Assembly (NCBI GenBank): GCA_050176815.1
Contig: JBFXHR010000012.1
Coordinates: forward strand, 15-64,014
Reading direction: 5' to 3'
DNA length: 64,000 nucleotides
Origin: Kiritimatiellia bacterium
Lineage (GTDB): Bacteria; Verrucomicrobiota; Kiritimatiellia; CAIQIC01; Lenti-01
This document shows, in pieces, positions 14,473 to 29,055 of this stretch (within the stretch, counting starts at the first letter, position 1; each line of letters starts with the position of its first letter). The notes beneath the pieces were generated by a model. The model made no database searches. It worked only from the letters and a program-made list of their open reading frames with translations, and was not told the DNA's origin. Both the position numbers and the translations under genes were made by a program.

Positions 14473-16551
14473 CTACAATTCAAACGTGTCCACGGGGCAT
14501 TCCGGCAGCGACCGCAGGAAGACGCGCCCGTACCATTTGGCGAGGAGGCGCGAATCGAGCACCACCACGATGCCTTCGTCGGTCTGCGAGCGCAGCAGGC
14601 GCCCGAAGCCCTGCCGGAATTTCAGCACCGCCTCCGGCAACGAATAGTCCCGGAACGGGTCGCCGCCTTTTTCCTTGATGCGCTTCAGCCGCGCCGCCAC
14701 CACGGGATGGTCCGGCACGGCGAACGGCAGGCGCGTGAGAATCACGTTGCGGAGCGCGTCGCCGCGCACGTCCACGCCCATCCAGAAACTGTCCAGTCCG
14801 AACAGCACGAAGCCCTTGTCTTCCCGAAACGTCTCCAGCATCGTGCGCCGCCCCAACCCCTCGCCCTGCGCCAGCAGCGTCAATCCGGCTTTTTCCAGAG
14901 GCTCGCGCAGGGCCGCGGCCGTCCGCTTCAGCAGTTCGCCGCTGGTAAAAAGCGCGAAGGCGCGCCCGCGCGTCTTCAGCGACCAGCGCAGGACGCCTTT
15001 GGCGACGGCCTCGGCGAACGCCTCCTTGTCCTTCGGATCGGGCGCGTTGGACGCCACGTGCAGGCGCATCTGCCGCGCATGGTCGAACGGCGACCCCAGG
15101 CAAAGCAATCCGCACCCGTCCCCCGCGCCGAGCCGGTCCCGGACGTATTCCAAATGGCCGCCCACCGCCAGCGTGGCGCTGGTCAGGACCACGCAGGGCA
15201 TGGCCTCGAAGAGCGCCGCATGCAGGAGCGGCGCCACCTCGATCGGCGCCGAGTGCAACACCGGCTGGCGGCGCTTGCCCTCGCGTTCGATCCAGTACAC
15301 GTGGTCCGGCAGCGACTGCCCCAAAAACGCCGCCAGCTGGTCGCCCAGCTCCGCCCCCTGTCCCCGCAAGCCGCGCAGCTCGGTCCGCGATTCTTCGTCC
15401 TGGTCTTCCAGTTCCTCGATCAGCGTCCCGAGGCGTCCAGACAGTTCCCGCAGCAGGTCGGGCACGTCGGTTTCCACCGCCAGCGGCCCCGGCACCGTTT
15501 TCTGGTCGTCGCGCGGGCCCAGCCCCGCCGCGCGCGGCACCGCATGGAACAGTTCCGCCGCCGCGTCCCACAGGCGCGTCGCCGTCTGCGCCGCCGGTCC
15601 GGCGCGCAGATAGCCCAGCAACCCCTTGCCCGTATCCGGAGAGAACAGCCGCCGCAGCCAGTGTTCGAACGAGTGCGGCGAAAGCCGGATGCCCAGATGG
15701 TCGCTCGCGGTGTCCTCGACCGTATGCGCCTCGTCCAGCACCACGGCGGCCACGTCGGGCAAAAAGCCCGCGCCCGCGCGCCGCAGGGCCAGATCGGAAA
15801 AGAACAGGTGGTGGTTGGCCACCAGCAGGTCGGCATCGCGCATCTTGGCGCGCGCCCGCTGCAGGAAACACCGCTGCCGCTCCGGGCATTTCGTCCCCAT
15901 GCAGTTGCCGTGCTCGGCGCAGACCGCGCTCCAGGCCTCGGCCGACGGCGGCCGGCGCATTTCCTGCACGCTGCCGTCTTCCGTGCGGTCCGCCCAGGCG
16001 CGGATGCGTTCCAGTTCCTCGGCCAGGCCTTCGCCGAACAGGTCCCGCTGGTGGTGGCGGGCGCGCGCCAGCCGGCGCAGGCACAGGTAGTTCATGCGCC
16101 CCTTCACCAGCGTGGCCCGGAACGGCGTCCCCAGCCGTTCCTGCAGCAGCGGAAGATCCTTGCCGACGAGTTGTTCCTGCAGCGAAATCGTGTGCGTGGA
16201 CACCATCGCGCGCGTGCCGGAACGCTTGGCGTGCAGAATCAGCGGCACCAGATAGGCCAGGCTTTTCCCCACCCCCGTTCCCGCCTCCACGACCAGATGC
16301 CGGTGGGCATCGAGCGCGTCGGCCACCGCGCGCGCCATGTCGACCTGCTGGGGCCGCGCCTCGTATTCGAAATCCCCGATGGGGGCGTCCGCCAAGACGC
16401 CGCCGGGAGCGAACGCCGCGCAGGCGGCCTCGCGCAACGGAGGACCGACGGGCGCGGAAACGCCCTGGATCGGCGCAATCACGGAGGGGGCTTTCGGCGC
16501 CGCGGGACGGGAGCGCGGCGCTCTATTCTTCCGGCGCGGCAGCCGGCGCAT
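14473..16551 (-). CDS. dinG: DinG/Rad3-family ATP-dependent DNA helicase
   Basis: FEYEARPQQVDMARAV (Q motif), GTGVGKSLAYLVP (Walker A), VVLDEAHTVED (DEAH), 4-Cys cluster CAEHGNCMGTKCPERQRC (Fe-S). Start placed at MRRLPRR (16551). The ORF-track N-terminal basic extension is doubtful. Confidence 0.8.
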   Translation of the reverse strand: MRRLPRRKNRAPRSRPAAPKAPSVIAPIQGVSAPVGPPLREAACAAFAPGGVLADAPIGDFEYEARPQQVDMARAVADALDAHRHLVVEAGTGVGKSLAYLVPLILHAKRSGTRAMVSTHTISLQEQLVGKDLPLLQERLGTPFRATLVKGRMNYLCLRRLARARHHQRDLFGEGLAEELERIRAWADRTEDGSVQEMRRPPSAEAWSAVCAEHGNCMGTKCPERQRCFLQRARAKMRDADLLVANHHLFFSDLALRRAGAGFLPDVAAVVLDEAHTVEDTASDHLGIRLSPHSFEHWLRRLFSPDTGKGLLGYLRAGPAAQTATRLWDAAAELFHAVPRAAGLGPRDDQKTVPGPLAVETDVPDLLRELSGRLGTLIEELEDQDEESRTELRGLRGQGAELGDQLAAFLGQSLPDHVYWIEREGKRRQPVLHSAPIEVAPLLHAALFEAMPCVVLTSATLAVGGHLEYVRDRLGAGDGCGLLCLGSPFDHARQMRLHVASNAPDPKDKEAFAEAVAKGVLRWSLKTRGRAFALFTSGELLKRTAAALREPLEKAGLTLLAQGEGLGRRTMLETFREDKGFVLFGLDSFWMGVDVRGDALRNVILTRLPFAVPDHPVVAARLKRIKEKGGDPFRDYSLPEAVLKFRQGFGRLLRSQTDEGIVVVLDSRLLAKWYGRVFLRSLPECPVDTFEL

Positions 16552-17611
16552 CGGCCGCGGCTTCCGCGGGCGCCGTCTCCGGCGCGGCGGCTTTCGACGC
16601 GACCGATGGGGCGATTTCCGCCAGCGGACCGGCAAACTTGATGGTCGCCTTGTCCCGCAGTTCCCCGATGTAGTCGTTCACGATTTTCTGCTGGGCCTTG
16701 GCTTTCATCGAGGCTTCCAGCCGTCCCTTGACTTCGTCGAACGGAACGACTTTCTTTTCCTGCTCTCCCGTCGCCCGGATCACGTGGAAGCCCACGGGCG
16801 ACTCCACCACTTCGCCGATTTCGCCGATGTTCTGGCCGTAGACGGCGTCTTCGAACGCTTTGTCCTCGCGCCCCTTGGGAATCACGCCCAGCGCGCCCCC
16901 GCGGCTGCGGCTCATGCACTCCGACACCTCGCCGGCGAGTTTTCCGAAATCGGCGCCTTCCAGCAGCGCCTTGCGGATGCCTTCCGCCTTCGCGCGCAGA
17001 TCGGCCTTGGCCGCTTCGGCCGCGTCTTTCGGCACCCGGACGAGGATATGCGAAGCCAGGCGCCCTTCCGGCTGGGTGAACTCTTCCAGATGCGCATCGT
17101 AGTAGGCCTTGGCCGTTTCGTCCGTCACCTCGGCGAACGCCGATTCCAAGCGATCCCGCAGGACTTTGTTCTTGAACAGGTCCAGGCGGAGATTCATCTC
17201 CACCTCTTCCATCGGGACGTTCGCATTCGCCAGCAGCATCGTCAGCGAGCCGCCCGGCAGTCCCTTTTCGAGATCCTTCTTGCCCTGCTCGATTTCCTCC
17301 TGCGAGACCAGCACGCCCGAACGTTCCATTTCCGCCTTCACCAACTGGCGGATCACCAGGTTGTCCACCGCCTGCTGCAGCACCTTCGCCTGCGCCGCCG
17401 ACATCTGTTCCGCCGGCAGATCCTTCGGCACGCTCGCAAACAGCCGGCCGGCCTCCTGCTGGATCTGGCCGGTGGTCAAGCCCACCTGATCCACCCAGAC
17501 CGACACTTCCGAGGCCCCGCCCCGGGGCTGGACCACCTGCGCGTCCTTCTTCCCGCAGCCCGCCGCCAACACCAAAGCCGAAATCCCGATCCACCGAATG
17601 AACTGCGTCAT
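16523..17611 (-). CDS. Parvulin-type peptidyl-prolyl isomerase lipoprotein (SurA/PrsA-like)
   Basis: Signal peptide plus lipobox LAAGC. SurA-N-like chaperone region followed by a parvulin core (RLASHILVRV...GGALGVIPKGR...VVESPVGFHVIR). Confidence 0.75.
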   Translation of the reverse strand: MTQFIRWIGISALVLAAGCGKKDAQVVQPRGGASEVSVWVDQVGLTTGQIQQEAGRLFASVPKDLPAEQMSAAQAKVLQQAVDNLVIRQLVKAEMERSGVLVSQEEIEQGKKDLEKGLPGGSLTMLLANANVPMEEVEMNLRLDLFKNKVLRDRLESAFAEVTDETAKAYYDAHLEEFTQPEGRLASHILVRVPKDAAEAAKADLRAKAEGIRKALLEGADFGKLAGEVSECMSRSRGGALGVIPKGREDKAFEDAVYGQNIGEIGEVVESPVGFHVIRATGEQEKKVVPFDEVKGRLEASMKAKAQQKIVNDYIGELRDKATIKFAGPLAEIAPSVASKAAAPETAPAEAAADAPAAAPEE

Positions 17612-17792
17612 GTTCTTTTTCCTTTCGCGCTATCTAGGCAAATCTTGAAAACAGCGGCATTTTCGGCCAATCCCCTCGAAAAGCAAGCCTCAAACTGGAG
17701 GGAAGGAAAAACCGGACGCCCGAAAAATGGGGTTTCCTCCGCCGGCCAAACCTGTATGCTGCCCCCCCCAGCAACCATGGACCCCAAACGAC

Positions 17793-18503
17793 ATGGCCAC
17801 CACCCTATTCATCCCCACCCTGAACGAGCTCGAAGCCATGCGCGTCGTCCTGCCCCAGATCGACCGGTCGTGGGTGGACCAGATCCTGGTCGTCGACGGC
17901 TCGACCGACGGCACCGCCGACTACGCCCGCGAGCACGGCTGCGAGGTCGTGGTCCAAAAGGAAAAAGGCCTGCGCCATGCCTTCATCGAAGGCTTTCCCC
18001 ACGTGCGCGGCGACTGGGTCATTACGTTCAGCCCCGACGGAAATTCGCCCGTCCGCGCCATCCCTCTCCTCATCGAAGAAATGAAAAAGGGCTACGACAT
18101 GGTGATCGCGTCCCGCTACCTGCCCCCGGCCAGGAGCGACGACGACGATCCCATGACCGCCTTCGGCAACTGGCTGTTCACGCACGCGATCAACGTCCTG
18201 CATGGACACGCCTGGAACCGCCCCTACACCGACGCGATGGTGATGTACCGCATCTACCGCACGAAGCTCTTCTACGAGCTGGACCTGGACCAGGAAGAAA
18301 GCTACGCCCCGGAAAAATGGTTCGGCACCATCCTCGGCATCGAGCCGCTGCTGTCCATCCGCGCCGCCAAGAAAAGGGTCAAGATCGGGGAAATCCCGGA
18401 AGACGAGCCCGCGCGCATCGGCGGCAAGCGCAAGCTCCAGCCCTTCCGCTGGGGCGGCGCCTACATGAGCCAGGTCTGGCGCGAATTGTATTTCTGGAAA
18501 TAG
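17793..18503 (+). CDS. GT2-family glycosyltransferase (polyprenyl-phosphate sugar synthase-like)
   Basis: MATTLFIPTLNELEAM...ILVVDGSTDGTADYA...DMVIASRY. GT2 DxD-type nucleotide-sugar binding region. Start chosen at MATTLF rather than the ORF-track upstream M. Confidence 0.7.
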   Translation: MATTLFIPTLNELEAMRVVLPQIDRSWVDQILVVDGSTDGTADYAREHGCEVVVQKEKGLRHAFIEGFPHVRGDWVITFSPDGNSPVRAIPLLIEEMKKGYDMVIASRYLPPARSDDDDPMTAFGNWLFTHAINVLHGHAWNRPYTDAMVMYRIYRTKLFYELDLDQEESYAPEKWFGTILGIEPLLSIRAAKKRVKIGEIPEDEPARIGGKRKLQPFRWGGAYMSQVWRELYFWK

Positions 18504-18839
18504 CGCTTCGCCCATGGTCCGCGCGCCGACAACGCTTAGGCTGGCCGACCTGGTCCCCGCCCGCAATCCCGGAGAGCTTCGGCGTCGGGCGGTTGTCCAC
18601 AATCCGCACACGGCGTTTCGGCGCTTCGCGGAGAATTCCGGCGCCCAGGCATGGGGGGCCTTCGCGGACCCCGAAAGAGACGGGCCTCGGCGCATGGCTC
18701 GCCGCCGCCGTCCTCCGATTCTGGGCGCCGTCCGCCGGGCGGGGGATCGGATTGCTGACTTTTCCCTTTGCGCGGGGCGAGGATTCGGCAATACAAGAGG
18801 TTTTTCCATGAAGATCTTGTCCATAAAGGAATGCCCGAG

Positions 18840-19925
18840 ATGAAAATCCTGATCACCGGTGGGTGCGGCTTTGTCGGCTCCGTTCTGGCCCGCAGCCTGT
18901 TGGAAGCGCGCGCAGGCCTGGAGATCGTGGGGATGGACAACTTGATCCGCCCGGGAAGCGAGATCCATCGCAGGACCCTGAACGCCCTCGGCGTCCGGCT
19001 GGTGCATGGGGACATCCGCTCCGCAAGCGATTTCGAGGGGTTGCCAAAGCTCGATTACGTGATCGATGCCGCCGCCTTGCCCAGCGTGCTGGCCGGAGTG
19101 GATGGACAGACCAGCAGCCGGCAGCTGATGGAACACAACCTCTACGGAACGGTCAATATCCTGGAACGATGCAAACGGGATGGGGCCGGATACATCCTGT
19201 TCAATACGAGCCGCGTCTATTCGATCCCCCCCTTGGCGGCCCTGCCGCTCCAGGTAGACGCGGAGGCTTACGTTCCCGACTTCAACCTCGTCGAGATCGA
19301 GGGGATGAGCCATCGGGGACTCGACGAGCGGTTCTCGACGAACCCGCCGCTGTCCCTTTACGGGACGTCCAAGCTGACTTCGGAAATCATCGCCCTGGAA
19401 TATGGGTCGTCGTTCGGCTTCCCCGTTTGGAGCAATCGGTGCGGCGTATTGGCGGGGGGGGGGCAATTGGGCCGTCCAGACCAGGGCGTTTTTTCGTATT
19501 GGATCCACAGCTGGCGCGAACGGAAGCCGCTCCGGTACGTCGGCTTCGATGGACGCGGGCACCAGGTTCGGGATTGCCTCCATCCGCGCGACCTGGTCGA
19601 GCTGCTCTTGAAACAAATGGACTACTGCGGAAACGACAAACCCCGGGTGCAGAACCTGTCCGGCGGAATGGAATCCGCGACTTCTTTGGCGCAATTGAGC
19701 CGCTGGTGCGAAGGCCGTTTTGGAAAACACTCCGTGGGGAGCGATGCGGCCTCCCGCCCGCATGACGTGCCCTGGCTCGTCCTGGATTCCCGTCTGGCGA
19801 AAGCCCAGTGGGGGTGGGAACCGCACACGCCCAAAGAAGCCATTTTCGAAGAGATTGCCCGCCACGCGGAAGAGCATCCCGACTGGTTGTCCTTGTCCTC
19901 CACCCCCTCGAGCGGAGTCCCATGA
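18840..19925 (+). CDS. NAD-dependent epimerase/dehydratase (extended SDR)
   Basis: MKILITGGCGFVGSVLARSL Rossmann motif and a YxxxK-like catalytic region (LYGTSKL). Start at ATG 18840. Confidence 0.8.
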   Translation: MKILITGGCGFVGSVLARSLLEARAGLEIVGMDNLIRPGSEIHRRTLNALGVRLVHGDIRSASDFEGLPKLDYVIDAAALPSVLAGVDGQTSSRQLMEHNLYGTVNILERCKRDGAGYILFNTSRVYSIPPLAALPLQVDAEAYVPDFNLVEIEGMSHRGLDERFSTNPPLSLYGTSKLTSEIIALEYGSSFGFPVWSNRCGVLAGGGQLGRPDQGVFSYWIHSWRERKPLRYVGFDGRGHQVRDCLHPRDLVELLLKQMDYCGNDKPRVQNLSGGMESATSLAQLSRWCEGRFGKHSVGSDAASRPHDVPWLVLDSRLAKAQWGWEPHTPKEAIFEEIARHAEEHPDWLSLSSTPSSGVP

Positions 19926-20713
19926 AGGAGCCCCCCGCCCGCCCCGCCGCATCCGAGGAACCGCTCAAGCTCCTGTCGGTCGTCATCCCCGCGCAAGACG
20001 AGGAAGGATGCCTGGCCGAGACCCTCGGACATCTGCATTCCACCTTGACGCTCCATGGAATCCCCCATGAAATCATTGTCGTGGACGATGGCAGTGCGGA
20101 TTCGACCTGGAGCCTTCTGCAAGGATTGAGCCCCGCCCTGCCCGAACTCCGCCCGGTTCAAAACGGCGGGCCTCGTGGATTTGGATGCGCCATCCGCTGC
20201 GGGCTCGAGCAGGTGACCGGAGATGCCGTCGTCATCGTGATGGCGGACGAGTCGGACGATTGCCGAGATGTCGTGGCCTACTGGGAAACCTTGAAAAAAG
20301 GGTACGACTGCGTATTCGGCAGCCGCTTCATGAAAGGCGGCGGCACCCGGGATTATCCGCCCCTCAAATACGTGCTGAACCGCATGGCGAACGGATTCAT
20401 CCGGTTGCTCTTCGGGATCAAGCTGAATGATACCACCAATGCCTTCAAAGCCTATCGGACCCGCGTCATCCAGGGGTGCATGCCCTTGCTCTCCATGCAC
20501 TTCAACTTGACGGTCGAATTGCCGCTCAAGGCGATCTGCCGGGGATACTCCTGGACCACCATCCCCATCACCTGGCGGAATCGGCAGTCCGGGGTGGCCA
20601 AACTGAAAATCAAGGAAATGGGCAGTCGTTACTTCTTCATCGTCATGTACGTCTGGCTTGAAAAATACTTCGGCCGCAGGGAGTGCAAAATCCGGCCCGA
20701 CGAGCGGGGATAA
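19922..20713 (+). CDS. GT2 glycosyltransferase, dolichol/polyprenyl-phosphate mannosyltransferase (DPM1)-like
   Basis: LSVVIPAQDEE...IIVVDDGSADST...VVIVMADESDD...TNAFKAYRTRV, typical of Dpm1/ArnC-type polyprenyl-P-sugar synthases. ATGA overlap with the epimerase stop (19922-19925). Confidence 0.8.
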   Translation: MKEPPARPAASEEPLKLLSVVIPAQDEEGCLAETLGHLHSTLTLHGIPHEIIVVDDGSADSTWSLLQGLSPALPELRPVQNGGPRGFGCAIRCGLEQVTGDAVVIVMADESDDCRDVVAYWETLKKGYDCVFGSRFMKGGGTRDYPPLKYVLNRMANGFIRLLFGIKLNDTTNAFKAYRTRVIQGCMPLLSMHFNLTVELPLKAICRGYSWTTIPITWRNRQSGVAKLKIKEMGSRYFFIVMYVWLEKYFGRRECKIRPDERG

Positions 20714-20967
20714 AACCCGTTCGCGCCTTCCCGGCCTCGTCGCCCATCTCATGCTGCCGCGAGATCCCGTGCGGCACTTCTGCGCCTTGGGGATGCCTCG
20801 ACCGGCCGCGGCCGGCCCGGCTTTGCCGAGGACATAGCCGCCCCCACCTTGTTTTCCGCCGGATCCATATCCTCCGGGAAAAGACCATGGAGGTACGGCG
20901 ATCGCGCGACCATCCAATTTTGGCCTTGTCGAAATCCAGAAAGCCTTCCAGATTGGATGGAAACGAG

Positions 20968-21133
20968 CCTCCCCGATGGCCACCCCCCTTTTCATCCCCA
21001 CCCTGAACGAGCTCGAAGCCATGCGCGTCGTCCGGCCCCAGATCGACCGCTCGCGGGTGGACCGGATTCTGGGGGTGGGCGGTTCGACCGACGCCGCCGC
21101 CGGGCATGTCCGCGAGACCGGGTTCCGGAATTA
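20968..21133 (+). pseudogene. Duplicated 5' fragment of the GT2 gene at 17793 (54-codon remnant ORF) immediately upstream of a TMTC-like gene
   Basis: 20965-21080 is about 85-90% identical to 17790-17905 (MATPLFIPTLNELEAMRVVRPQIDR... versus MATTLFIPTLNELEAMRVVLPQIDR...), then diverges and stops at TAG 21131-21133. Confidence 0.5.
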
Positions 21134-21145
21134 GATTTCTCCGCC

Positions 21146-23212
21146 ATGCAAGCCCAGGTCGCATCCCAACCGCGGTCGGCGCCCCACCCCCCGGCCGGCC
21201 GACGGCGGGTTTGGTTGCTTCCGGCTCTGTTGGCGTTGGTTCTGTTTGCCCCGGCCGTCGGATTCGATTTCATCAACTACGACGACGACCGCTACGTCTA
21301 CGACAATCCCCGCGTCACGGGCGGACCGACCGTGGAGAATCTGCGATGGGCGTTCACGGCCGTCCACGAGGACTGGTGGCTGCCGGTCCTGTGGATTTCC
21401 TACATGCTCGATTCGGCCCTGCTGGGCAAGGCTCCGGGGGGCTATCACCTGGTGAACGTGCTGTTGCACGCCGCGAATGCGGGCCTGCTCGGCTGGACGC
21501 TCTATCGCCTGACCCGCGCCCGCTGGCGCAGTCTCGCGGTGGCCGCGCTGTGGGCCGCGCATCCGCTGCGCATCGAATCCGTCGCCTGGATCACCGAACG
21601 CAAGGACGTGCTGAGCGGACTGTTCTTCTTTCTCGCGCTGCTCGCCTACGTCCGCCACGTCGAACGACCGTCCGCCGTTCGTTTCGGCCTCGTGTTCGGC
21701 GCCATGCTTCTCGGCCTGGCATCCAAGGCCTCGGTCATCGTCCTGCCGATTCTCCTCCTGTTGCTGGATTTCTGGCCCCTGCGCCGCGCCGAGCTCCCGT
21801 GGACGTCCGGCGCGGGAAAACCGTGGCGGCGCCTCGTCGCGGAAAAAATCCCGCTGTTTGCGCTGGCCGCGGTCTTTGCGGCCATCAATCTGCGCACGCA
21901 CGCCGGCGGAACCGGGCTCGGGTTGGATTACTCTTGGAGCCAGCGGGTCGCGTTGATTCCCGGCAACGTCTGGACCTACCTGCGGCTCGTGGCCTGGCCC
22001 GCGCATCTTTCCGTCTTCTATCCCGAAAACGATGCCGTGCCGATCGGCTCCGCGCTGGTCGCCCTGGCGGGACTGGCCGGGCTGACCGGCTGGTTCGCCC
22101 GACAAGCCCGGCGGCGCCCCCATTGGCCGGTCGGCTGGCTTTGGTTTCTCGTCGCGCTCCTGCCGATTCTCCGCGGCGTCCGCCTCGGAAACGCGGCCTA
22201 TGCCGACCGCTTCACGTATCTCCCTTCCATCGGGTTGACCCTGGCCGTCGTCTGGCAAGCGATGGGCGGCGCGGAGCGGAGCGCCGCCGCCCGCAGGGCA
22301 GGAGCGGGAGTCCTCGCGCTCCTGCTGGCCGCGTGCGTGGGCCAGACGGCCGCGGTTCTGCCGGCGTGGCGCCATTCGATTGGGCTTTATGAATACGCCC
22401 TGCGCTCGGAACCGGCCAACCCCGTTCTGCTCAACAATCTCGGAACCGCCCTGATGCTGGAGCAACGCAACGAAGAGGCCCTCGATCATTTCCGGCGCTC
22501 CCTCGCCGCCAATCCGGCCTATCTGCCCGCCCGGGCCAACCAGGCGCTGGTCCTGCATCGACTCGGCCGCCTCGCGGAAAGCCGGGCCGCGGCGGACCAA
22601 GGCCTCGACTGGGAACAGAATTCGCCGCCCCTCAACCACATGCTGGCCTCGCTTCTGCTGGGCGAAACGCCGCCGGAACCTCGGGCCGCGTTGCCGGATT
22701 CCCTCTCCCCCCGGGATCTGGGCCGACTGCTGGAACGCGGCTCCCTTCCGGCCGTGCTGGAGTTCCGCGATCTCTACCGCCGGCCGGCGCCCGCGCTCCT
22801 CGCGGAAATCCGGTCCGTCCAACTGGACTACGTCCGGCTGTGGCGCAGCGGCCGGAAGGACCGGGCCTGGCGTTTTTTCCTCTTTGCGCTGGCCGCCAAT
22901 CCGCACGACGTGTCCCTGCTCAACGATGCCGCCTGGCTGCTGGCCACCGATTCCGCGCCGCCCGCCGATGCGCGGCGCGCCCTCCTCCTGGCCCGGCGGG
23001 CCCATCGCCTCGCCGCGCCCCATCTCCAGGCTTCCATCCTCGACACGCTCGCCGCCGCGCTCGCCGCCGCCGGCCACTTCGACGAAGCGCAACGTGCCGC
23101 GCAAGAGGCCATCGGCTTGGCCACGCAAGCCGGCGACGCCCGCGCCGCCGACCAGATTTCCGCGCGCCTCGAAACCTATCGCAACCGCAAACCGTGGCGA
23201 GACGCCCCGTGA
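21146..23212 (+). CDS. TPR-repeat protein with N-terminal GT-C (PMT/TMTC-like, DUF1736-type) membrane domain. Putative protein O-mannosyl/glycosyltransferase, paralog 1.
   Basis: N-terminus FDFINYDDDRYVYDNPRV...HLVNVLLHAANAGLL...WAAHPLRIESVAWITERKDVLSGLFF, a signature shared with eukaryotic TMTC and bacterial DUF1736 proteins. C-terminal half is TPR-like repeats. Confidence 0.75.
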   Translation: MQAQVASQPRSAPHPPAGRRRVWLLPALLALVLFAPAVGFDFINYDDDRYVYDNPRVTGGPTVENLRWAFTAVHEDWWLPVLWISYMLDSALLGKAPGGYHLVNVLLHAANAGLLGWTLYRLTRARWRSLAVAALWAAHPLRIESVAWITERKDVLSGLFFFLALLAYVRHVERPSAVRFGLVFGAMLLGLASKASVIVLPILLLLLDFWPLRRAELPWTSGAGKPWRRLVAEKIPLFALAAVFAAINLRTHAGGTGLGLDYSWSQRVALIPGNVWTYLRLVAWPAHLSVFYPENDAVPIGSALVALAGLAGLTGWFARQARRRPHWPVGWLWFLVALLPILRGVRLGNAAYADRFTYLPSIGLTLAVVWQAMGGAERSAAARRAGAGVLALLLAACVGQTAAVLPAWRHSIGLYEYALRSEPANPVLLNNLGTALMLEQRNEEALDHFRRSLAANPAYLPARANQALVLHRLGRLAESRAAADQGLDWEQNSPPLNHMLASLLLGETPPEPRAALPDSLSPRDLGRLLERGSLPAVLEFRDLYRRPAPALLAEIRSVQLDYVRLWRSGRKDRAWRFFLFALAANPHDVSLLNDAAWLLATDSAPPADARRALLLARRAHRLAAPHLQASILDTLAAALAAAGHFDEAQRAAQEAIGLATQAGDARAADQISARLETYRNRKPWRDAP

Positions 23213-23458
23213 GTCCCCGCGCCGGACTTTCCGCCCCCACGCCTTTTTCCGCCTTTTTCCAAGGCCGTGTTTTTCGCCGATCTTTCGGCGGACGCGGCAT
23301 TTCCGCCGCATTTCTTCGGGTAAAACGATGCTGATTTATTTTTCACTTTTTGCATTGCCAGACCTTGCGCACCCGTGGTAAAAACAAAACCAAGATTGGA
23401 AAGGGTTTTTTCTTTCCACCGACAGTTTAAAAAGAAACGAATACCAAAGGAGAACACG

Positions 23459-24184
23459 ATGAAGAAATTGGCAATTGGTTTGACGATCGCCCTGGTGGCG
23501 GGAATGGCCTCGGCCGCGATTCTCGGATCGGACGACTTTAGCTATACCGGCGCGTTGACCGCCAATGGCTGGGTCGCCTACAGCGGCACGGACGGCAGCG
23601 TCACCGCCAACGGCAGCGTGGCCGCGGTCGGTTCGGGCGCGGAAGACATCCGCATGACGGCGTTTGGCGATCAGGGCAGCGGGACGGTCTATGCGTCCTT
23701 CACCCTGAACCTGCTTTCGGCCGCCACGGGCAGCGCCTACACGTTCGGCTTCATCGATGGTGCGACCATGGAAAGCCGCTGGGGCTTCACCGCCACCGCC
23801 TCGGACTACAGCATGGCCTCCTACGGCACGGGCACCGCCGTTATCGGCAACTCGTCCGCGATGTCCTTCTCGACGGACTACCTGATCACGATGAGCTACA
23901 ACGCCACGACGTTCACCCACAGCCTGTGGATCAACTCCGACGGCACCGATGAAGCCACCCCCGACATGACCCTCTCCGCGGGGACCAACACGGGCATCGA
24001 CAGCTTCTTCATCCGCCAGGCGACTCCGTTCGGCGCGGGCAGCGCGTCCTACACGGTGGACAGCCTGGTGGTCGGCTCGACGTTCGCGGACGTTACTCCG
24101 GCCGCCGTTCCCGAGCCCGCCACGATGGGCCTCCTCGGCCTCGGCGCCCTCGCGATGGTCCTCCGCCGCAAGATGAGCAAGTAA
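23459..24184 (+). CDS. PEP-CTERM sorting-domain secreted protein
   Basis: Signal peptide MKKLAIGLTIALVAGMASA. C-terminus VPEPATMGLLGLGALAMVLRRKMSK (PEP motif, TM helix, basic tail). Ser/Thr/Gly/Asn-rich body. Shine-Dalgarno aaggag 7 nt upstream of the ATG. Confidence 0.8.
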   Translation: MKKLAIGLTIALVAGMASAAILGSDDFSYTGALTANGWVAYSGTDGSVTANGSVAAVGSGAEDIRMTAFGDQGSGTVYASFTLNLLSAATGSAYTFGFIDGATMESRWGFTATASDYSMASYGTGTAVIGNSSAMSFSTDYLITMSYNATTFTHSLWINSDGTDEATPDMTLSAGTNTGIDSFFIRQATPFGAGSASYTVDSLVVGSTFADVTPAAVPEPATMGLLGLGALAMVLRRKMSK

Positions 24185-24207
24185 TTCCGATCTGATCGGA
24201 AACAAAA

Positions 24208-24234
24208 CCGCCGGGTTCGCCCGGCGGTTTTTTC
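24208..24234 (+). terminator. Intrinsic terminator after the PEP-CTERM gene
   Basis: GC hairpin ccgccgggttcgcccggcgg followed by tttttt. Confidence 0.55.
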
Positions 24235-24246
24235 GTGCCCTCTCTT

Positions 24247-24330
24247 CGGCGGTTCAGGTAGGGACGGCTCTCCGAGCCGTCCGTTTTCTTGCATATTCGG
24301 ACATCTCTTAGAGATGTCCCTACCACATCG
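24247..24330. repeat. REP-like compound palindromic element (GGTAGGGACG...hairpin...hairpin...CGTCCCTACC), copy 1, at the 3' end of the RAYT gene
   Basis: ggtaggGACGGCTCtccGAGCCGTCcgttttcttgcatattcGGACATCTCttaGAGATGTCCctacc. Its GTAGGGAC arm overlaps the RAYT stop codon. Confidence 0.6.
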
Positions 24331-24781
24331 GCGTCGGGACCTCCCACACGTGCGGCCAGTCCTCTGCTCGTGCAGTCAGCCCTTTGCGCACCGGATTCTG
24401 CCGGACGTAAAACGCCTTCTCTTCGTATTCCGTCGCGTGGCGGATGCGATGGTCGAAGAAATCCCGCGGCCATTCGATTCCCAACGTCCGCGCCGTCCAG
24501 CGCTTCCATTCCCTCATCACGGCCTTCATGCCGGGATTTTCCGGGAAACTGGCCATCAGATGCACGTGGTCGGGCATAACCAGAAACAGGCGCACCCACC
24601 AGCGGCCGGCCTCCATTTGCCGGCGGGCGTTCTCCCACAGCCGCCGGGGGCAGTCCATTTCCAGCAAGGGCGAACCGCCGCGCGATTTCGCGTTCAGGGT
24701 AATGAAAAACACCGCGCCGGCGGCGACCCACGGCGGCACCTCGTGCGGCAATCGCTTCCGCTGTGGAAGGAAATCGTTCAT
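24320..24781 (-). CDS. REP-associated tyrosine transposase (RAYT; IS200/IS605 Y1-HUH family, TnpA_REP-like)
   Basis: 153-aa product from MNDFLPQRKRLPH... with HUH motif MPDHVHLM. Flanked on both sides by the same palindromic repeat family. The ORF-track upstream extension is rejected. Confidence 0.7.
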   Translation of the reverse strand: MNDFLPQRKRLPHEVPPWVAAGAVFFITLNAKSRGGSPLLEMDCPRRLWENARRQMEAGRWWVRLFLVMPDHVHLMASFPENPGMKAVMREWKRWTARTLGIEWPRDFFDHRIRHATEYEEKAFYVRQNPVRKGLTARAEDWPHVWEVPTPMW

Positions 24782-24839
24782 CGTCGAAAAACGTATTTCC
24801 CCTGCGCCCGGCGAGCCGAAAGCTTTGAAGGCTGTTTGG

Positions 24840-24915
24840 CCGGAAGGTAGGGACGCTTCCACGAAGCGTCCGCGCTCTTCCCCAAACGGACGCCTCGCAG
24901 AGGCGTCCCTACCAT
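24840..24915. repeat. REP-like compound palindromic element, copy 2, just upstream of the RAYT start
   Basis: ggtaggGACGCTTCcacGAAGCGTCcgcgctcttccccaaacGGACGCCTCgcaGAGGCGTCCctacc. Same architecture as copy 1. Confidence 0.6.
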
Positions 24916-27023
24916 CCCTCCCGGTAGGCCTTTCCCTCCCGATACAGCGCCAGCCGCTTTTCGATTTCCCGCGCCAGCGCTTCATCCTTCGCCAACGCCA
25001 GCGCCTGCTCGCCGGCTTCCACGGCGCCCGCGTAATCTCCGGCCGCCGCCCGCGCGACGCCCAGCGTGTCCAGCACCGTTCCGGATTTCCATTGCGTTGC
25101 TTCCACGGCCCGTTCGGCCAAGCCCACCGCCCGCGCGACGATGTCCGGCGGCGTGCGTTCGTCCGTCGCCGCCAGCCAAGCCACGTTGTTCAGCAACTGG
25201 ACGTTCTGGCCCCACTCCGATTCAAGCAACCGATCGAAGTACCGCCAGGCGTAGGCCCGACCGCCCATCTGCCATTGAACCACGTAGTGCGGAAACAGCG
25301 ATTCATAGGCGGGCTGAATCGTCCCGCCCGCCCGGCGCGCGGATTCCACCAGCCGCCGGGCCTCGCTGGAACGTCCGGCCTCCAGATAGGCCCGGAGAAG
25401 TTCGTTGAGAATCCTCGCGTCGGCCGGCCGTCGCCGCCGCGCATCCTGCAGATGCGGAATCGCCTCCCCCGGGCGGCCTTCATGGAGCAGGGACATTCCC
25501 CAGGCGGTGGGGACCATCCAATATGCAGAGGGATCGTTCTGCCAAGACCGCAACACTTCGCGCGCCTCCTCGGTCCGGCCTTGCAGGACTTGGACGTATC
25601 CCAGATTGCCGGCGCAAATCGAGCGCTCCGCCTGATTTTGCACCTGAAGATCCAGCACCCGCTCGAAATGGCTTTCCGCTTCCTCCACGTCCCCCCGGGA
25701 AAAATGCCAGACCCCGGAGTTCATCAAAGCAATCGGCTGCCCGGGCGAAATCGCCAGCGCCCGCTCCAGCAAAGCGCCCGAGTCTTTCCAGACCGGCAAT
25801 TGCCGACGGGTCCATCCGGCCGCCACCGCCAAGGACAATCCCCCCGCCACGATCCACGCCCGGGTCCGCCCTCCCGCCGTTGCCAGCCATCCGGCTACGG
25901 CCAAAGACAGACCCATGGCCGGCAAGTAGGCGTAGCGGTCCGCGCGGCTCTGCGCGCCAAACGCCACGATGCCGCTCACCGGCAGCAGCGCCAAGACGAA
26001 CCACAGCCAGCCGACCAGTCCGGCCGGCCGGGTCCGCCGTCCATGTCCAACCGCCCACGTCCCCGCCGCGATCAGCGCCGCCGCGACCGCCACGCGCGTG
26101 GCGGTCAGCCCCGCATCGGCATACAGCACCGCCAGATTCCGGGGAACCAGCGTCCGCCACAGGTAGAAAACGATGTGGAGCGGCACGCGCGCCAGCCGCG
26201 CGCCAAGGCTTTCCGGATGCAGGCTTCCGGCCGCTTCGTGTCCCAGCACCGACAAGGCCGCCGAGGCGGCGGCCAGCCCCCAGAACAGCCATTTTTCCGC
26301 GATCAGACCGGGCCACTTCCGCAGATCCTGAGCCGTCCACTTCACCCGGCCCAACGGCCAAACATCCAATAGGAGCAGCAAGCCCGGCACGACCATCAGG
26401 GTCGATTTAGACATCAGACCCAACGCGAGCAACCCCGCCGCAGCGTAGAACCAGCCCCGCGCGCGGCGCGTTCCCGAACGGCTTTGGACATAGGCTCCAA
26501 GGCACAGGAGAAAAAACAGGCCGCTCAGCACGTCCTTGCGGCAGGAAACCCACGCAACGGCCTCCACCCGCAACGGATGCCACGCCCAGAACAGCGCGGC
26601 CCAGCAGGCCGCCCAGCGGTTCCCGGTCCAGCGGCGCAGCAGCCCAAACAACAGCACGGCATTCAGGGCGTGCAGCAGAACGTTGGTGAAGTGAAACGGA
26701 AACGGCCGGCGCCCGCCCCATTCCACGTCCAGCGCGTAGGACAAGCCCGTCAGCGGAATCCACAGGTTTTCCTGCATCGTCCCGAAAATCGTCCGCACCC
26801 CTTCCCCCGTGAAGCCGTTGGCCACCGCGGGATTGTCGACGACGTAGCGGTCGTCGTCCAGCAAGACGAAGTCGTAGCCCGTCGCCGGCCAAAAGACCGC
26901 CAAGGTTGAAGCCAAAATCAACAGCCCCAGGAATACATCAACGTGGCGGCGGAAAAAGCCGGTTGGCAGCGGAGATTTCACGCTGGTCTTCCTAGCCGAT
27001 TGGCAAACCGAAAACCAGTTCAA
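24909..27023 (-). CDS. TPR-repeat / GT-C (TMTC/PMT-like) membrane glycosyltransferase, paralog 2
   Basis: YDFVLLDDDRYVVDNPAV...HFTNVLLHALNAVLL...WAWHPLRVEAVAWVSCRKDVLSGLFF. C-terminal TPR repeats. Same domain order as 21146..23212. Confidence 0.75.
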   Translation of the reverse strand: MNWFSVCQSARKTSVKSPLPTGFFRRHVDVFLGLLILASTLAVFWPATGYDFVLLDDDRYVVDNPAVANGFTGEGVRTIFGTMQENLWIPLTGLSYALDVEWGGRRPFPFHFTNVLLHALNAVLLFGLLRRWTGNRWAACWAALFWAWHPLRVEAVAWVSCRKDVLSGLFFLLCLGAYVQSRSGTRRARGWFYAAAGLLALGLMSKSTLMVVPGLLLLLDVWPLGRVKWTAQDLRKWPGLIAEKWLFWGLAAASAALSVLGHEAAGSLHPESLGARLARVPLHIVFYLWRTLVPRNLAVLYADAGLTATRVAVAAALIAAGTWAVGHGRRTRPAGLVGWLWFVLALLPVSGIVAFGAQSRADRYAYLPAMGLSLAVAGWLATAGGRTRAWIVAGGLSLAVAAGWTRRQLPVWKDSGALLERALAISPGQPIALMNSGVWHFSRGDVEEAESHFERVLDLQVQNQAERSICAGNLGYVQVLQGRTEEAREVLRSWQNDPSAYWMVPTAWGMSLLHEGRPGEAIPHLQDARRRRPADARILNELLRAYLEAGRSSEARRLVESARRAGGTIQPAYESLFPHYVVQWQMGGRAYAWRYFDRLLESEWGQNVQLLNNVAWLAATDERTPPDIVARAVGLAERAVEATQWKSGTVLDTLGVARAAAGDYAGAVEAGEQALALAKDEALAREIEKRLALYREGKAYREGW

Positions 27024-27051
27024 ATCCGGCGCCGGCCGTTTTCGCAGGCAA

Positions 27052-28878
27052 CTATTCGCGATAGGGCGTTCCGGATCGATACAGATCCAGACGCTTCCGG
27101 ATCGCTTTCGCCTCTACCGGATCCGTTGTCAACGCCAATGCTTGCTCGCCGGCTTCGACGGCCCCCGCGAAATCCCCGGCGGCCGCGCGGGCCACGCCCA
27201 AGGTGTCCAGCATCGGCGCGAATTTTCCGTGGGTCCAAGCCACCGCGCGCTCCGCGTGTTCGGTTGCGCGCGCGCCCACTTCCGGCGTCGCCTCCGGATC
27301 CGTGGCCAGCAACCAGGCCAGATTGTTCAAGGCCCGCGCGGACAGCAAATCTTCTGCAACCGCCGCTTGGTAATGCCGGACGGCCTCTTTCTTGCGCCCC
27401 GCCGCGACCAGGGCGTTGGCGAGATTGACGCGCGCCTTGTTGCGCTTGGGCTGGATTTCGAGACTGCGCTGCAGATGGATTTCGGCTTCCGGCCAGCGGC
27501 CCTGCTCCATGTACCACATCCCCAGATTCCCGTGGGCAAGCGCATTGCGCTCCACAACGGAAATCACCTGCTGGAACAGGGTCTCCGTCGTCCGCCACAC
27601 GGCCGTCTGCCCGCGCGAAACCACCGCCAGCGCAATCGCCAGTACCGTCGCGGATGCCAGGAGGTAGGGACGCCTCTCCGAGGCGTCCGTTGACCTGCTT
27701 TGCCGGACGCCTTGGCAAGGCGTCCCTACCTGCCGGTCCCGGATTTTCCCCGCCCCCCAAACCGCCGCCACGATCAAACCAATATGCGGCAAATAGGTGT
27801 AGCGATCCGCCCAGGCCTGGCTCCCCACCTGCACCAGCCCGATCATCGGCACCAGCGCCCCTAAAAACCAGAACCAACCCACGGTCAACCAAGGCCGGCG
27901 GCGGAACTGGCCGGCCGCCCCCGCCGTCAAAACGGCCACCAACGCCAGCGAAACAGCCATCCGAAGCAGGGAATGGCCTCCGATCGGATGGGGATAGAAG
28001 GCGGCCAGGCCCGTTGGCCAAACCAGCATCCGCACGTACTCCGAATAGGCCACGCCCGCGTGGACGATACGCGTGGCCAACGGCAACACGTCCAATGCGC
28101 CAACGGCTCCGCCTTTCCCCTGCGCCCAAACCGTCGCGGCGCACGACCCGGCCGCCAGCGCGAACAACGGCCATTTTTCCGCCGCCAGTTTCCGCCACGG
28201 TTCCGCCGGCCAACGGCCCAGCGGCCAGACGTCCAGCAGCAGCAGCAGAAACGGAAGCGTCACCCAGGTCGGCTTGGCCATCAGGCTCAAGGCAAAAAAC
28301 ACCGCCACCGGGCCAATTCGAAACGTTGTAGGCCGGGTGCCCCCACCCGGCGCATTCCGTCCATGCATCCCCACCGCCAGCAGTCCGAACAGCATCGCCA
28401 ACACGTCCTTGCGCTCCGAAATCCAGACGACCGATTCCACGCGCAGCGGATGCACCGCCCACAGCGCCGCCGCCATCCACGACAACCCCGCGCGTCGCGT
28501 CATCCGGCGCAATGCCCAAAACAGCAAGATCGCGTTGGCCGCGTGCAGCAGCAGGTTCGTGAGATGGTGCCCGGCCGGATTCAAGCCGTACAGTTCCACG
28601 TCCGCCATGTGCGACAGCCAGGCTAGCGGGTGCCAGTTGGAGGCATGCCCCGTCGTCAAGGCCCAGCGAACGGCGGCGATCGTCAGCCCCTGCGCCACCT
28701 GCGGATTCTCGGTCACGTACACGTCGTCGTCGAACCGCACGAATCCGCATTCCAGCGCCCCGCCGAACGCGAAGAACACCAGCGCCGCCAGGCCCGCGGC
28801 GGCGACGGCCCCCCGCGCCCGCCGGGCCCTTTCCGGGAACGCCGTTTCCCCCAGCATCTCCTCGTTTCTTGCCGCCAT
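27052..28878 (-). CDS. TPR-repeat / GT-C (TMTC/PMT-like) membrane glycosyltransferase, paralog 3, carrying an in-frame REP insertion
   Basis: FVRFDDDVYVTENPQV...HLTNLLLHAANAILL...WAVHPLRVESVVWISERKDVLAMLF. C-terminal TPR repeats. Contains the extra loop segment ...VGTPCQGVRQSRSTDASERRPY... encoded by a REP element. Confidence 0.7.
   Translation of the reverse strand: MAARNEEMLGETAFPERARRARGAVAAAGLAALVFFAFGGALECGFVRFDDDVYVTENPQVAQGLTIAAVRWALTTGHASNWHPLAWLSHMADVELYGLNPAGHHLTNLLLHAANAILLFWALRRMTRRAGLSWMAAALWAVHPLRVESVVWISERKDVLAMLFGLLAVGMHGRNAPGGGTRPTTFRIGPVAVFFALSLMAKPTWVTLPFLLLLLDVWPLGRWPAEPWRKLAAEKWPLFALAAGSCAATVWAQGKGGAVGALDVLPLATRIVHAGVAYSEYVRMLVWPTGLAAFYPHPIGGHSLLRMAVSLALVAVLTAGAAGQFRRRPWLTVGWFWFLGALVPMIGLVQVGSQAWADRYTYLPHIGLIVAAVWGAGKIRDRQVGTPCQGVRQSRSTDASERRPYLLASATVLAIALAVVSRGQTAVWRTTETLFQQVISVVERNALAHGNLGMWYMEQGRWPEAEIHLQRSLEIQPKRNKARVNLANALVAAGRKKEAVRHYQAAVAEDLLSARALNNLAWLLATDPEATPEVGARATEHAERAVAWTHGKFAPMLDTLGVARAAAGDFAGAVEAGEQALALTTDPVEAKAIRKRLDLYRSGTPYRE
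27660..27728. repeat. REP-like compound palindromic element, copy 3, located inside CDS 27052..28878 and translated in-frame
   Basis: ggtaggGACGCCTCtccGAGGCGTCcgttgacctgctttgccGGACGCCTTGgcaAGGCGTCCctacc. The reverse complement translates in the gene frame as QVGTPCQGVRQSRSTDASERRPYLL. Confidence 0.6.
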
Positions 28879-29055
28879 GCCCCCTATTGATGGCAGGAGC
28901 GCCAGCCGGATGCAAGTCCCGCCCGGCCCGGGCGCCCCCGCCGGTCCACGGACGTCGCCTTCGGGAATGGCGCGCCCGGAACCCGAAACGAGCCCTTGAC
29001 TTTTTAATCCAATGTTGTACTATCCGATATCGAATCATTGATTGGACCCCACGAG

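Follow-up and report, generated by a model that had tools for sequence, protein, structure and literature searches.

Organization of the locus

The 64-kb window analyzed here is a 66% G+C stretch of a metagenome-assembled contig (JBFXHR010000012.1) from a Kiritimatiellia bacterium, and its glycosylation locus carries a 52-codon open reading frame (ORF), referred to as the stub, which repeats the beginning of a family 2 glycosyltransferase gene (GT2a) and probably derives from a complete copy of that gene by internal deletion. Gene order was assigned from third-position G+C content (GC3) together with domain scans against Pfam and NCBIfam. GT2a (17793-18503; plus strand; 236 aa; PF00535) is followed by a 336-nt left spacer without a coding GC3 signal (18504-18839), a plus-strand gene for an NAD-dependent epimerase/dehydratase (18840-19925; PF01370, E = 2e-27), and a second GT2 gene on the same strand, GT2b, which codes for a dolichol-phosphate mannosyltransferase-like protein (19922-20713; PF00535, E = 1.5e-19). 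A 262-nt right spacer separates GT2b from the stub (20976-21134, 52 codons plus stop; plus strand), which ends 11 nt (ATTTCTCCGCC, 21135-21145) before the start of T1 (21146-23212, plus strand). T1, called TMTC-like paralog 1 in the initial annotation, codes for a 688-aa protein with a predicted multi-pass membrane domain followed by tetratricopeptide repeats (TPR). On the GT2a side the locus is bounded by minus-strand genes for a helicase (14473-16635) and a SurA-like peptidyl-prolyl isomerase (PPIase; 16523-17611), and beyond T1 lie a PEP-CTERM protein gene (23375-24184) and two minus-strand T1 paralogs, T2 (24909-27023) and T3 (27052-28878).

To collect relatives, GT2a was used to scan a genome collection and metagenomes, and the gene contexts of GT2b homologs were looked up; together these gave 105 related loci (designated with L numbers); L106 is the window's own sequence and is left out of these 105. 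The nearest relatives carry the labels Verrucomicrobiota or Opitutia.

A repeat of the GT2a 5' end

Positions 17793-17938 and 20976-21121 align without gaps over 146 nt at 86% identity, beginning at the GT2a ATG; BLAST reports the pair as 127 nt at 89% identity (E = 3e-36), and BLASTP matches the stub to GT2a at 75.5% identity over 49 aa (E = 2e-20). The two copies are exactly identical over at most 43 consecutive nt (17808-17850, the same as 20991-21033), and the encoded peptides are MATTLFIPTLNELEAMRVVLPQIDR and MATPLFIPTLNELEAMRVVRPQIDR, as the initial annotation gave them. The repeat that it reported is thus real and far beyond chance, and it is not a low-complexity sequence. Its GT2 start at 17793 is correct, but the ATG of the copy is at 20976 rather than 20968, the similarity extends over 141-146 nt rather than about 115 nt, the ORF has 52 codons plus a stop instead of 54, and the distance to the T1 ATG is 11 nt, not 12.

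The stub might be part of a longer gene, either as an N-terminal extension of T1, whose frame has no stop back to 20849 and offers an ATG at 20957, or as a frameshift fusion with T1, which lies in the -1 frame relative to the stub. The GC3 pattern speaks otherwise: in the stub's own frame it is 0.80-0.84, like that of GT2a, whereas in the T1 frame it is 0.42-0.52 over 20925-21075, resembling a second codon position, and reaches 0.8 only from 21150. Neither the frame continuous with T1 nor the minus-strand ORFs have a coding GC3 pattern. Homologs of T1 begin 30-45 residues ahead of an Asp-Asp (DD) motif, as T1 does from 21146, and no protein corresponding to the extended 751-aa T1 is on record by exact-sequence look-up; the same look-ups with GT2a, the 52-aa stub product, and T1 also returned nothing. 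Both the -1 frameshift fusion and the N-terminal extension are rejected on GC3 and homolog start positions, and a longer gene of any such kind is extremely improbable.

The stub as a probable internally deleted copy of GT2a

The 5' part of the stub (20976-21116) corresponds to GT2a codons 1-47 and is identical to the intact copy at 122 of 141 positions. It closes with the hexamer CGCGAG (21111-21116), which in intact GT2a is codons 46-47 (17928-17933, as read from the sequence), and beyond this hexamer the stub reads ACC GGG TTC CGG AAT TAG (21117-21134). GT2a genes end in (W/V)RE-L-(W/G/Y)-F-W-K-stop, for example CGCGAG CTC TGG TTC TGG AAA TAG in L003 and CGCGAG TTG GGG TTC TGG AAG TAA in L004, and the junction hexamer is the one found at both sites of full-length genes; the 3' site of the window's intact copy is CGCGAA (codons 230-231, 18480-18485) and is CGCGAG in L003, L004, and L038. 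With the register set by CGCGAG, the stub tail is identical to these GT2a 3' ends at 10-13 of 18 positions, a score of 13 that only 7 of the 62,784 18-mers of the window reach; following the other CGCGAR sites (n = 97) the next 18 nt match at a mean of 5.3 positions and a maximum of 10. The sequence TCCGCC-ATG-C at the junction of the stub with T1 is identical to that in L004 between the GT2a stop and the start of the TPR gene, and the codon count fits exactly (236 - 184 = 52).

As judged from these alignments, both ends of the stub are homologous to GT2a. The initial annotation had the copy contain a 5' segment only and then diverge; it also holds the last five codons of GT2a (232-236), the stop codon, and the native junction with the next gene. 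Because these are retained, the stub is read as an internally deleted whole copy, and the 52-codon ORF is, with good probability, a complete GT2a gene lacking codons 48-231 (552 nt, in frame), deleted between the 6-nt repeats CGCGAG and CGCGAA.

Deletion between two copies of a short repeat is the usual signature of RecA-independent slippage or of microhomology-mediated deletion. The stub resembles bacterial pseudogene remnants formed by deletions of the kind known from lacI-type studies in having a 6-nt repeat (up to 9 nt in an L003-like parent) of which one copy is left, and in its raised ratio of nonsynonymous to synonymous divergence (dN/dS). Such deletions need not preserve the frame, the two gene ends, or the junction with the next gene; here all of these are preserved, which could reflect a selective filter.

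Decay of the stub

Between the stub and intact GT2a, dS is 0.23, dN is 0.12, and dN/dS is 0.52, with 12 amino acid replacements in 47 codons. Intact GT2a orthologs at similar dS (0.27-0.38) have dN/dS values of 0.04-0.08, and that of L003 is 0.20. One replacement, D35G, falls within the VVDGS motif, at an Asp that is present in 11 of 11 orthologs examined. By these measures the stub is under relaxed selection and has lost a conserved Asp; together with its GT2a homology, its length of 52 versus 236 codons, and the lack of a counterpart ORF in the 105 related loci, it has the attributes of a pseudogene. The 52-aa product has no match among Pfam or NCBIfam models and, as predicted from its sequence, cannot be an enzyme. 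The rearrangement had been described as recent, but a dS of about 0.23 is similar to the distance between related species (0.27-0.38).

The two copies are unevenly diverged: nt 1-75 differ at 4 positions and nt 76-141 at 15 (Fisher p = 0.003). The first ~75 nt of the stub have probably been homogenized by the intact copy through gene conversion; the alternative is selection on the translation-initiation region, and the two are not separable here.

A split upstream region

The stub and the intact gene differ in what lies ahead of them, and the 60 nt upstream of the stub are unlike the upstream sequence of intact GT2a. The GT2a-proximal region of the intact copy (17693-17792, plus strand; type A) contains the motif CCAAACCTGTATGCTGCC, which by eye is common to L004, L101, L001, and L035, whereas neither L003 nor the stub upstream region has it. 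Ahead of the stub, 20-58 nt before its ATG, is a type B block (20918-20955, plus strand) that is ~31/38 identical to positions 99-137 of the L003 PPIase-GT2a intergenic region, at the same distance from the ATG. Its alignment score of 39 was reached by 0 of 3,000 shuffles and 0 of 1,015 pieces of related loci. The first 81 nt (positions 0-81) of the same 160-nt L003 intergenic region align with the PPIase-proximal part of the PPIase/GT2a intergenic region in the window (17612-17692; score 59), a part that also aligns with L001 at 88-92% identity. Aligned in this way, the single intergenic region of L003 is split in the window around ~3.2 kb (17693-20917), an interval that contains the type A upstream region, intact GT2a, the left spacer, the epimerase gene, GT2b, and 204 nt without homology (20714-20917, the 5' part of the right spacer).

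The flanks of this interval have different affinities. In the left block, the helicase, PPIase, and GT2a are 82-84%, 68-73%, and 89-93% identical to those of L001, L004, and L101, versus 79%, 63%, and 89% to those of L003. In the right block, the PEP-CTERM gene (61%) and T2 (70%) have orthologs in L003 only.

A simple account of the repeat, and the one given literally by the initial annotation, would be a recent duplication of the GT2a 5' end within this genome, with the copy drifting into unrelated sequence. The coding part of the stub is indeed nearest to the genome's own GT2a, with two unique states common to both. This account does not explain why the GT2a 3' end and the junction between GT2a and the TPR gene have homologs in the last 18 nt, the stop codon, and the junction of the stub, nor why the upstream sequence is like that of L003 and unlike that of the intact copy, and a dS of 0.23 is not recent. 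The flanks of the two copies are not each other's closest matches, as a recent tandem or segmental duplication would have them, with the stub upstream flank matching L003 instead. We consider a duplication of this kind very unlikely.

Independent support for the arrangement comes from the Logan contig L106, which is 100% identical to window positions 17821-21020 and whose gene call at 1020-2105 is the window epimerase gene (18840-19925). L106 confirms the interior of the arrangement, and it ends inside the 43-nt exact core on both sides, showing that the assembly graph branches at the repeat. Since the window comes from a metagenome-assembled contig, the de Bruijn graph could have been wrongly resolved at this core, for example if the stub really lies right behind the PPIase gene with a separate 3.18-kb repeat unit, or if the contig is a two-strain chimera. 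The core is shorter than typical reads, however, the 64-kb contig spans both copies, and in the assembled order every degenerate change is on the stub and none on intact GT2a. A wrong resolution is possible but unlikely, and is given very little weight, as misjoining could not produce a stub that is deleted and decayed and has an upstream block of its own.

GT2a loci in relatives and the epimerase-GT2b module

The gene order helicase-PPIase-GT2a is kept in L001-L004, L007, L035, and L101, and GT2a is 89-93% identical to its orthologs in L001-L005 and L035. In L003, L004, L005, L026, L037, and L100 the next gene after GT2a is a TPR membrane gene, which follows directly or at a distance of about 65-190 nt; the spacer is 14 nt in L004 and 63 nt in L005, and in L001 GT2a is separated from its next gene by 13 nt. 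In L001, L002, L007, and L035 a PMT_2-like membrane gene comes first after GT2a, followed by three TPR genes. None of the 105 related loci has an epimerase gene or GT2b between GT2a and the TPR gene, and none has a stub such as this one. The comparison thus places GT2a directly before the TPR gene in relatives and indicates that the epimerase-GT2b pair at this position, and the stub, are specific to this lineage.

In L003 (the same as L036), the TPR gene right after GT2a is itself a pseudogene (3070-3696), with an in-frame stop (LPAL*LSF) and a ~95-aa internal deletion. L003 is the mirror image of the window in this respect; there the TPR gene has decayed, and in the window a GT2a copy has decayed and the TPR gene is intact.

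The epimerase gene and GT2b overlap by 4 nt (ATGA) in the window, as they do in L102 and L103. The epimerase has 85% aa identity to that of L102, and GT2b is 83% identical to P0002/L102. L102 has the closest copy of the pair (85% nucleotide identity), and DNA homology extends only over 18838-20706, that is, over the two coding sequences; no homology was found between the L102 flanks and the window spacers, and the match stops at the ends of the coding sequences. The pair occurs in unrelated neighborhoods in L102-L105 and in L016/L053. From its gene contexts, the epimerase-GT2b pair is a self-contained, conserved, and portable two-gene unit. The pair (window 18840-20713; L102 5405-7284) crosses not only very different neighborhoods but also phyla, and GT2b is ~70-75% identical in Geobacter, Chloracidobacterium, Planctomycetota, and others.

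Probable joining of two glycosylation cassettes

The initial annotation had proposed a recombination scar between two glycosylation cassettes, and this is borne out by the gene order in relatives, by the lineage-specific position of the epimerase-GT2b pair, and by the stub having its own L003-like upstream block. The locus as a whole is, in our judgment, quite probably the product of two cassettes joined, with the redundant copy then deleted, rather than of a simple duplication. A cassette with intact GT2a and epimerase-GT2b would have joined upstream of a resident GT2a-T1 operon, the simplest route being one homologous and one illegitimate crossover; the redundant resident GT2a would then have been deleted internally; and the first ~75 nt of the stub would later have been homogenized with the intact copy by gene conversion.

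Several observations weigh against this reconstruction. In its coding part the stub comes nearest to the GT2a of this same genome (125 of 146 positions, versus 118 for L001 and 113 for L003), and two states are found only in the stub and the own GT2a (nt 4 G and nt 63 C); the joining of two cassettes therefore needs an extra assumption, either gene conversion or duplication within the lineage. The distinction between type A and type B upstream regions is based on blocks of 18-38 nt. Genome, metagenome, and protein-context searches found no genome with an intermediate state (two intact GT2a copies) or with a donor arrangement (GT2a followed by epimerase-GT2b), and the order of events is therefore one that we infer. 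The spacers at 18504-18839 and 20714-20917 have no homology that would tell their origin: the left spacer matches no related locus, includes a 109-aa ORF without a Pfam match, and contains no trace of the PMT_2-like gene found next after GT2a in L001, L002, and L007, and 20714-20917 has no homolog, Rfam match, or promoter-like or terminator-like site.

The left spacer does have an ATG 10 nt after the stop codon of intact GT2a (18504-18524), in a C-rich context (cgcttcgccc-ATG-g) like the start context of the gene following GT2a in relatives. The 109-codon ORF beginning there lacks a coding signature, and the ATG may be what is left of the start of a former downstream gene.

Mobile elements were considered as a cause of the insertion. 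No repeats bound the insert except the GT2a repeat itself, there is no transposase-like ORF, and both insert genes have sugar-metabolism domains. An insertion sequence, transposon, or miniature inverted-repeat transposable element (MITE) is accordingly rejected, as terminal inverted repeats, a target-site duplication, and a transposase were not found. Part of what homology-facilitated illegitimate recombination would leave is present, in that the insert is absent from relatives and interrupts otherwise contiguous L003-type sequence.

Module displacement by homology-facilitated illegitimate recombination was proposed for type VI secretion system (T6SS) effector-immunity arrays of Vibrio cholerae and likewise for Rhs loci (PMC5361080, with reference to de Vries & Wackernagel 2002, Prudhomme et al. 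2002, and Meier & Wackernagel 2003). As in those arrays, a new module would sit beside a conserved anchor, with the resident genes shifted downstream and orphan pieces of the displaced gene left as a record. The orphan pieces in the T6SS and Rhs arrays are 3' ends and immunity genes, whereas here the 5' end, the 3' end, and the upstream block are kept and the middle was lost separately. The comparison is an analogy and not a demonstration.

A possible leader role for the stub

The stub stop codon (21132-21134) lies 11 nt before the T1 ATG (21146), as would be expected of a leader ORF. Because the stub still begins and ends where GT2a did, ribosomes translating it would stop 11 nt before the T1 start, and T1 may thus retain its former expression context. 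Operons are familiar settings for leader ORFs and translational coupling, as in trpE-trpD-style termination-reinitiation, and selection could have kept the stub as a translated leader ORF, in which the GT2a upstream region, start, and stop-to-ATG junction are preserved so that T1 is expressed by termination-reinitiation after remodeling of the operon. Such a role would be compatible with a pseudogene origin, the distinction being whether the stub is now maintained or left to drift.

Several features fit this idea. Despite 24 substitutions, nothing has disrupted the start, the 52-codon frame, or the stop 11 nt ahead of the T1 ATG; the deletion of 552 nt preserves the frame, and the TCCGCC-ATG-C junction is conserved in L004. 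The conserved 38-nt upstream block is retained, and differences are far fewer in the first 75 nt than in the remainder (4 versus 15, p = 0.003). However, in simulations with 24 random substitutions the start, frame, and stop all survive in 24% of runs, making intactness weak evidence, and the 5' conservation is equally explained by gene conversion, the shared states being specific to this genome's two copies. Moreover, the stub-T1 junction has no significant hairpin (-24.9 kcal/mol, z = -0.92; 34 of 200 shuffles fold equally well), no Shine-Dalgarno-like sequence was seen by eye before the stub ATG or the T1 ATG, and the stub is carried by none of the relatives.

Other searches for regulatory features were negative. 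The 467-nt region covering the right spacer plus stub folds no better than shuffles (z = +0.6), nor does any of five stop-to-start junctions; Rfam over 17400-24400 gave only a chance microRNA match (E = 0.95); and a scan for sigma-70 promoters and terminators found no promoter-like sites, with terminator-like sites at chance level and none between GT2b and the T1 start. No directly comparable case of a gene remnant serving in coupling came out of a literature search. The stub could act as a leader or in coupling, but the idea is unsupported, and we think it rather unlikely that selection has kept the stub for this purpose.

The stub is like known coupling and leader ORFs in that a short ORF ends 11 nt before the next start, with a junction inherited from a gene pair 10-15 nt apart in relatives. 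It differs from them in lacking a start-masking structure, conservation between genomes, and the amino-acid-sensing logic of attenuation leaders.

A second, separate stub is present in Chthoniobacter (L033, 8737-8883, with the same sequence in L095), at a position unrelated to that of the window stub. It is a 48-codon N-terminal GT2a-family stub, 52% identical to residues 1-45 of the window GT2a, and the GT2 that the same contig carries at 10001, 41% identical, is not the source of a recent copying event that gave this stub. The stub has an ATGA overlap with an upstream gene for a 684-aa membrane protein and a double stop ~10 nt before the candidate ATG of a Methyltransf_24 gene. This case favors a leader role to the extent that it places another GT2a stub ~10 nt before the candidate start of the next gene. 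Because there are two independent cases, the window stub before T1 and the L033 stub before the methyltransferase gene, in-frame stubs of the lead GT2a gene might have been kept repeatedly as translated adapter ORFs that pass the former upstream region, translation start, and stop-to-ATG junction on to whichever gene comes after, although we regard this as doubtful.

The proteins of the locus and the TPR membrane gene family

GT2a has a GT-A-type GT2 catalytic domain (PF00535, E = 4e-17; 63 bits versus a cut-off of 23.3). Its NCBIfam matches to AglJ, dolichyl-phosphate-hexose transferase, and ArnC are below threshold (the best at 90.5 bits versus a cut-off of 325), and an equivalog-level match to a characterized synthase (AglJ, DPM, or ArnC) is not reached. 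Among structures in the Protein Data Bank (PDB), the dolichol-phosphate mannose synthase 5mlz matches with E = 5e-11 over residues 3-113 only. By these matches GT2a resembles polyprenyl-phosphate sugar synthases.

T1 matches only TPR families in Pfam at E <= 1 (TPR_2, E = 9e-10), with no match to DUF1736, PMT, or PMT_2; T2 has a PMT match at E = 0.14. The T1 paralogs T2 and T3 are 38-42% identical to it. The N-terminal 400 residues of T1 are hydrophobic and are helical in a low-confidence AlphaFold model (built on a 3-sequence alignment; pLDDT of 43, unusable), and PDB searches with T1, including one with a profile from 18 homologs, gave TPR matches only and none to the membrane domain. Many TPR genes in relatives share 58-64% identity with the N-terminal region of T1, the best being the GT2a-adjacent gene of L004, and D46 and D47 are invariant in 18 homologs.

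T1 is like the eukaryotic TMTC1-4 O-mannosyltransferases (PMC7801869) in having a predicted N-terminal multi-pass membrane domain followed by TPR and an acidic pair (D46 D47) near the first loop, and it adjoins GT2 enzymes resembling polyprenyl-phosphate sugar synthases, the expected donors for GT-C enzymes. Human TMTCs match DUF1736 at E < 1e-30 (PMC7801869), and T1 is unlike the TMTCs in having no DUF1736, PMT, or PMT_2 match and no PDB match for its membrane domain. The TMTC-like label for T1 is thus best taken as a description of predicted architecture only.

In the window (21146-29038) and in L001, L002, L007, L035, and L040-L043, paralogous TPR membrane genes (33-54% identical to each other) form arrays of two to four beside PEP-CTERM genes. 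Their order and orientation vary between close relatives, suggesting a fast-turnover family. A 69-nt palindromic element, AGGTAGGGACG...CGTCCCTACC, occurs three times in this region (24256-24324, 24845-24913, and 27662-27730) with 0 occurrences expected by chance; one site is intergenic, one lies over the T2 stop codon, and one is inside T3 as an in-frame 23-codon insert. In sequence the element looks REP- or MITE-like.

Implications

The stub is a new instance of a well-known kind of feature, an ordinary genomic scar that is unusually legible; specialists will not find it surprising, and it does not open any long-standing question. Annotations should mark 20976-21134 as a fragment of a GT2a pseudogene, neither leaving it blank nor merging it into T1. 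The stub also adds a case to the question of whether deletions within operons are filtered to be non-polar, that is, in frame and with the junction kept. For the Verrucomicrobiota/Kiritimatiellia lineage, it would be a readable record of the rebuilding of a glycosylation locus, in which epimerase-GT2b and a second GT2a were added before an older GT2a-TPR operon and the redundant gene was trimmed in frame.

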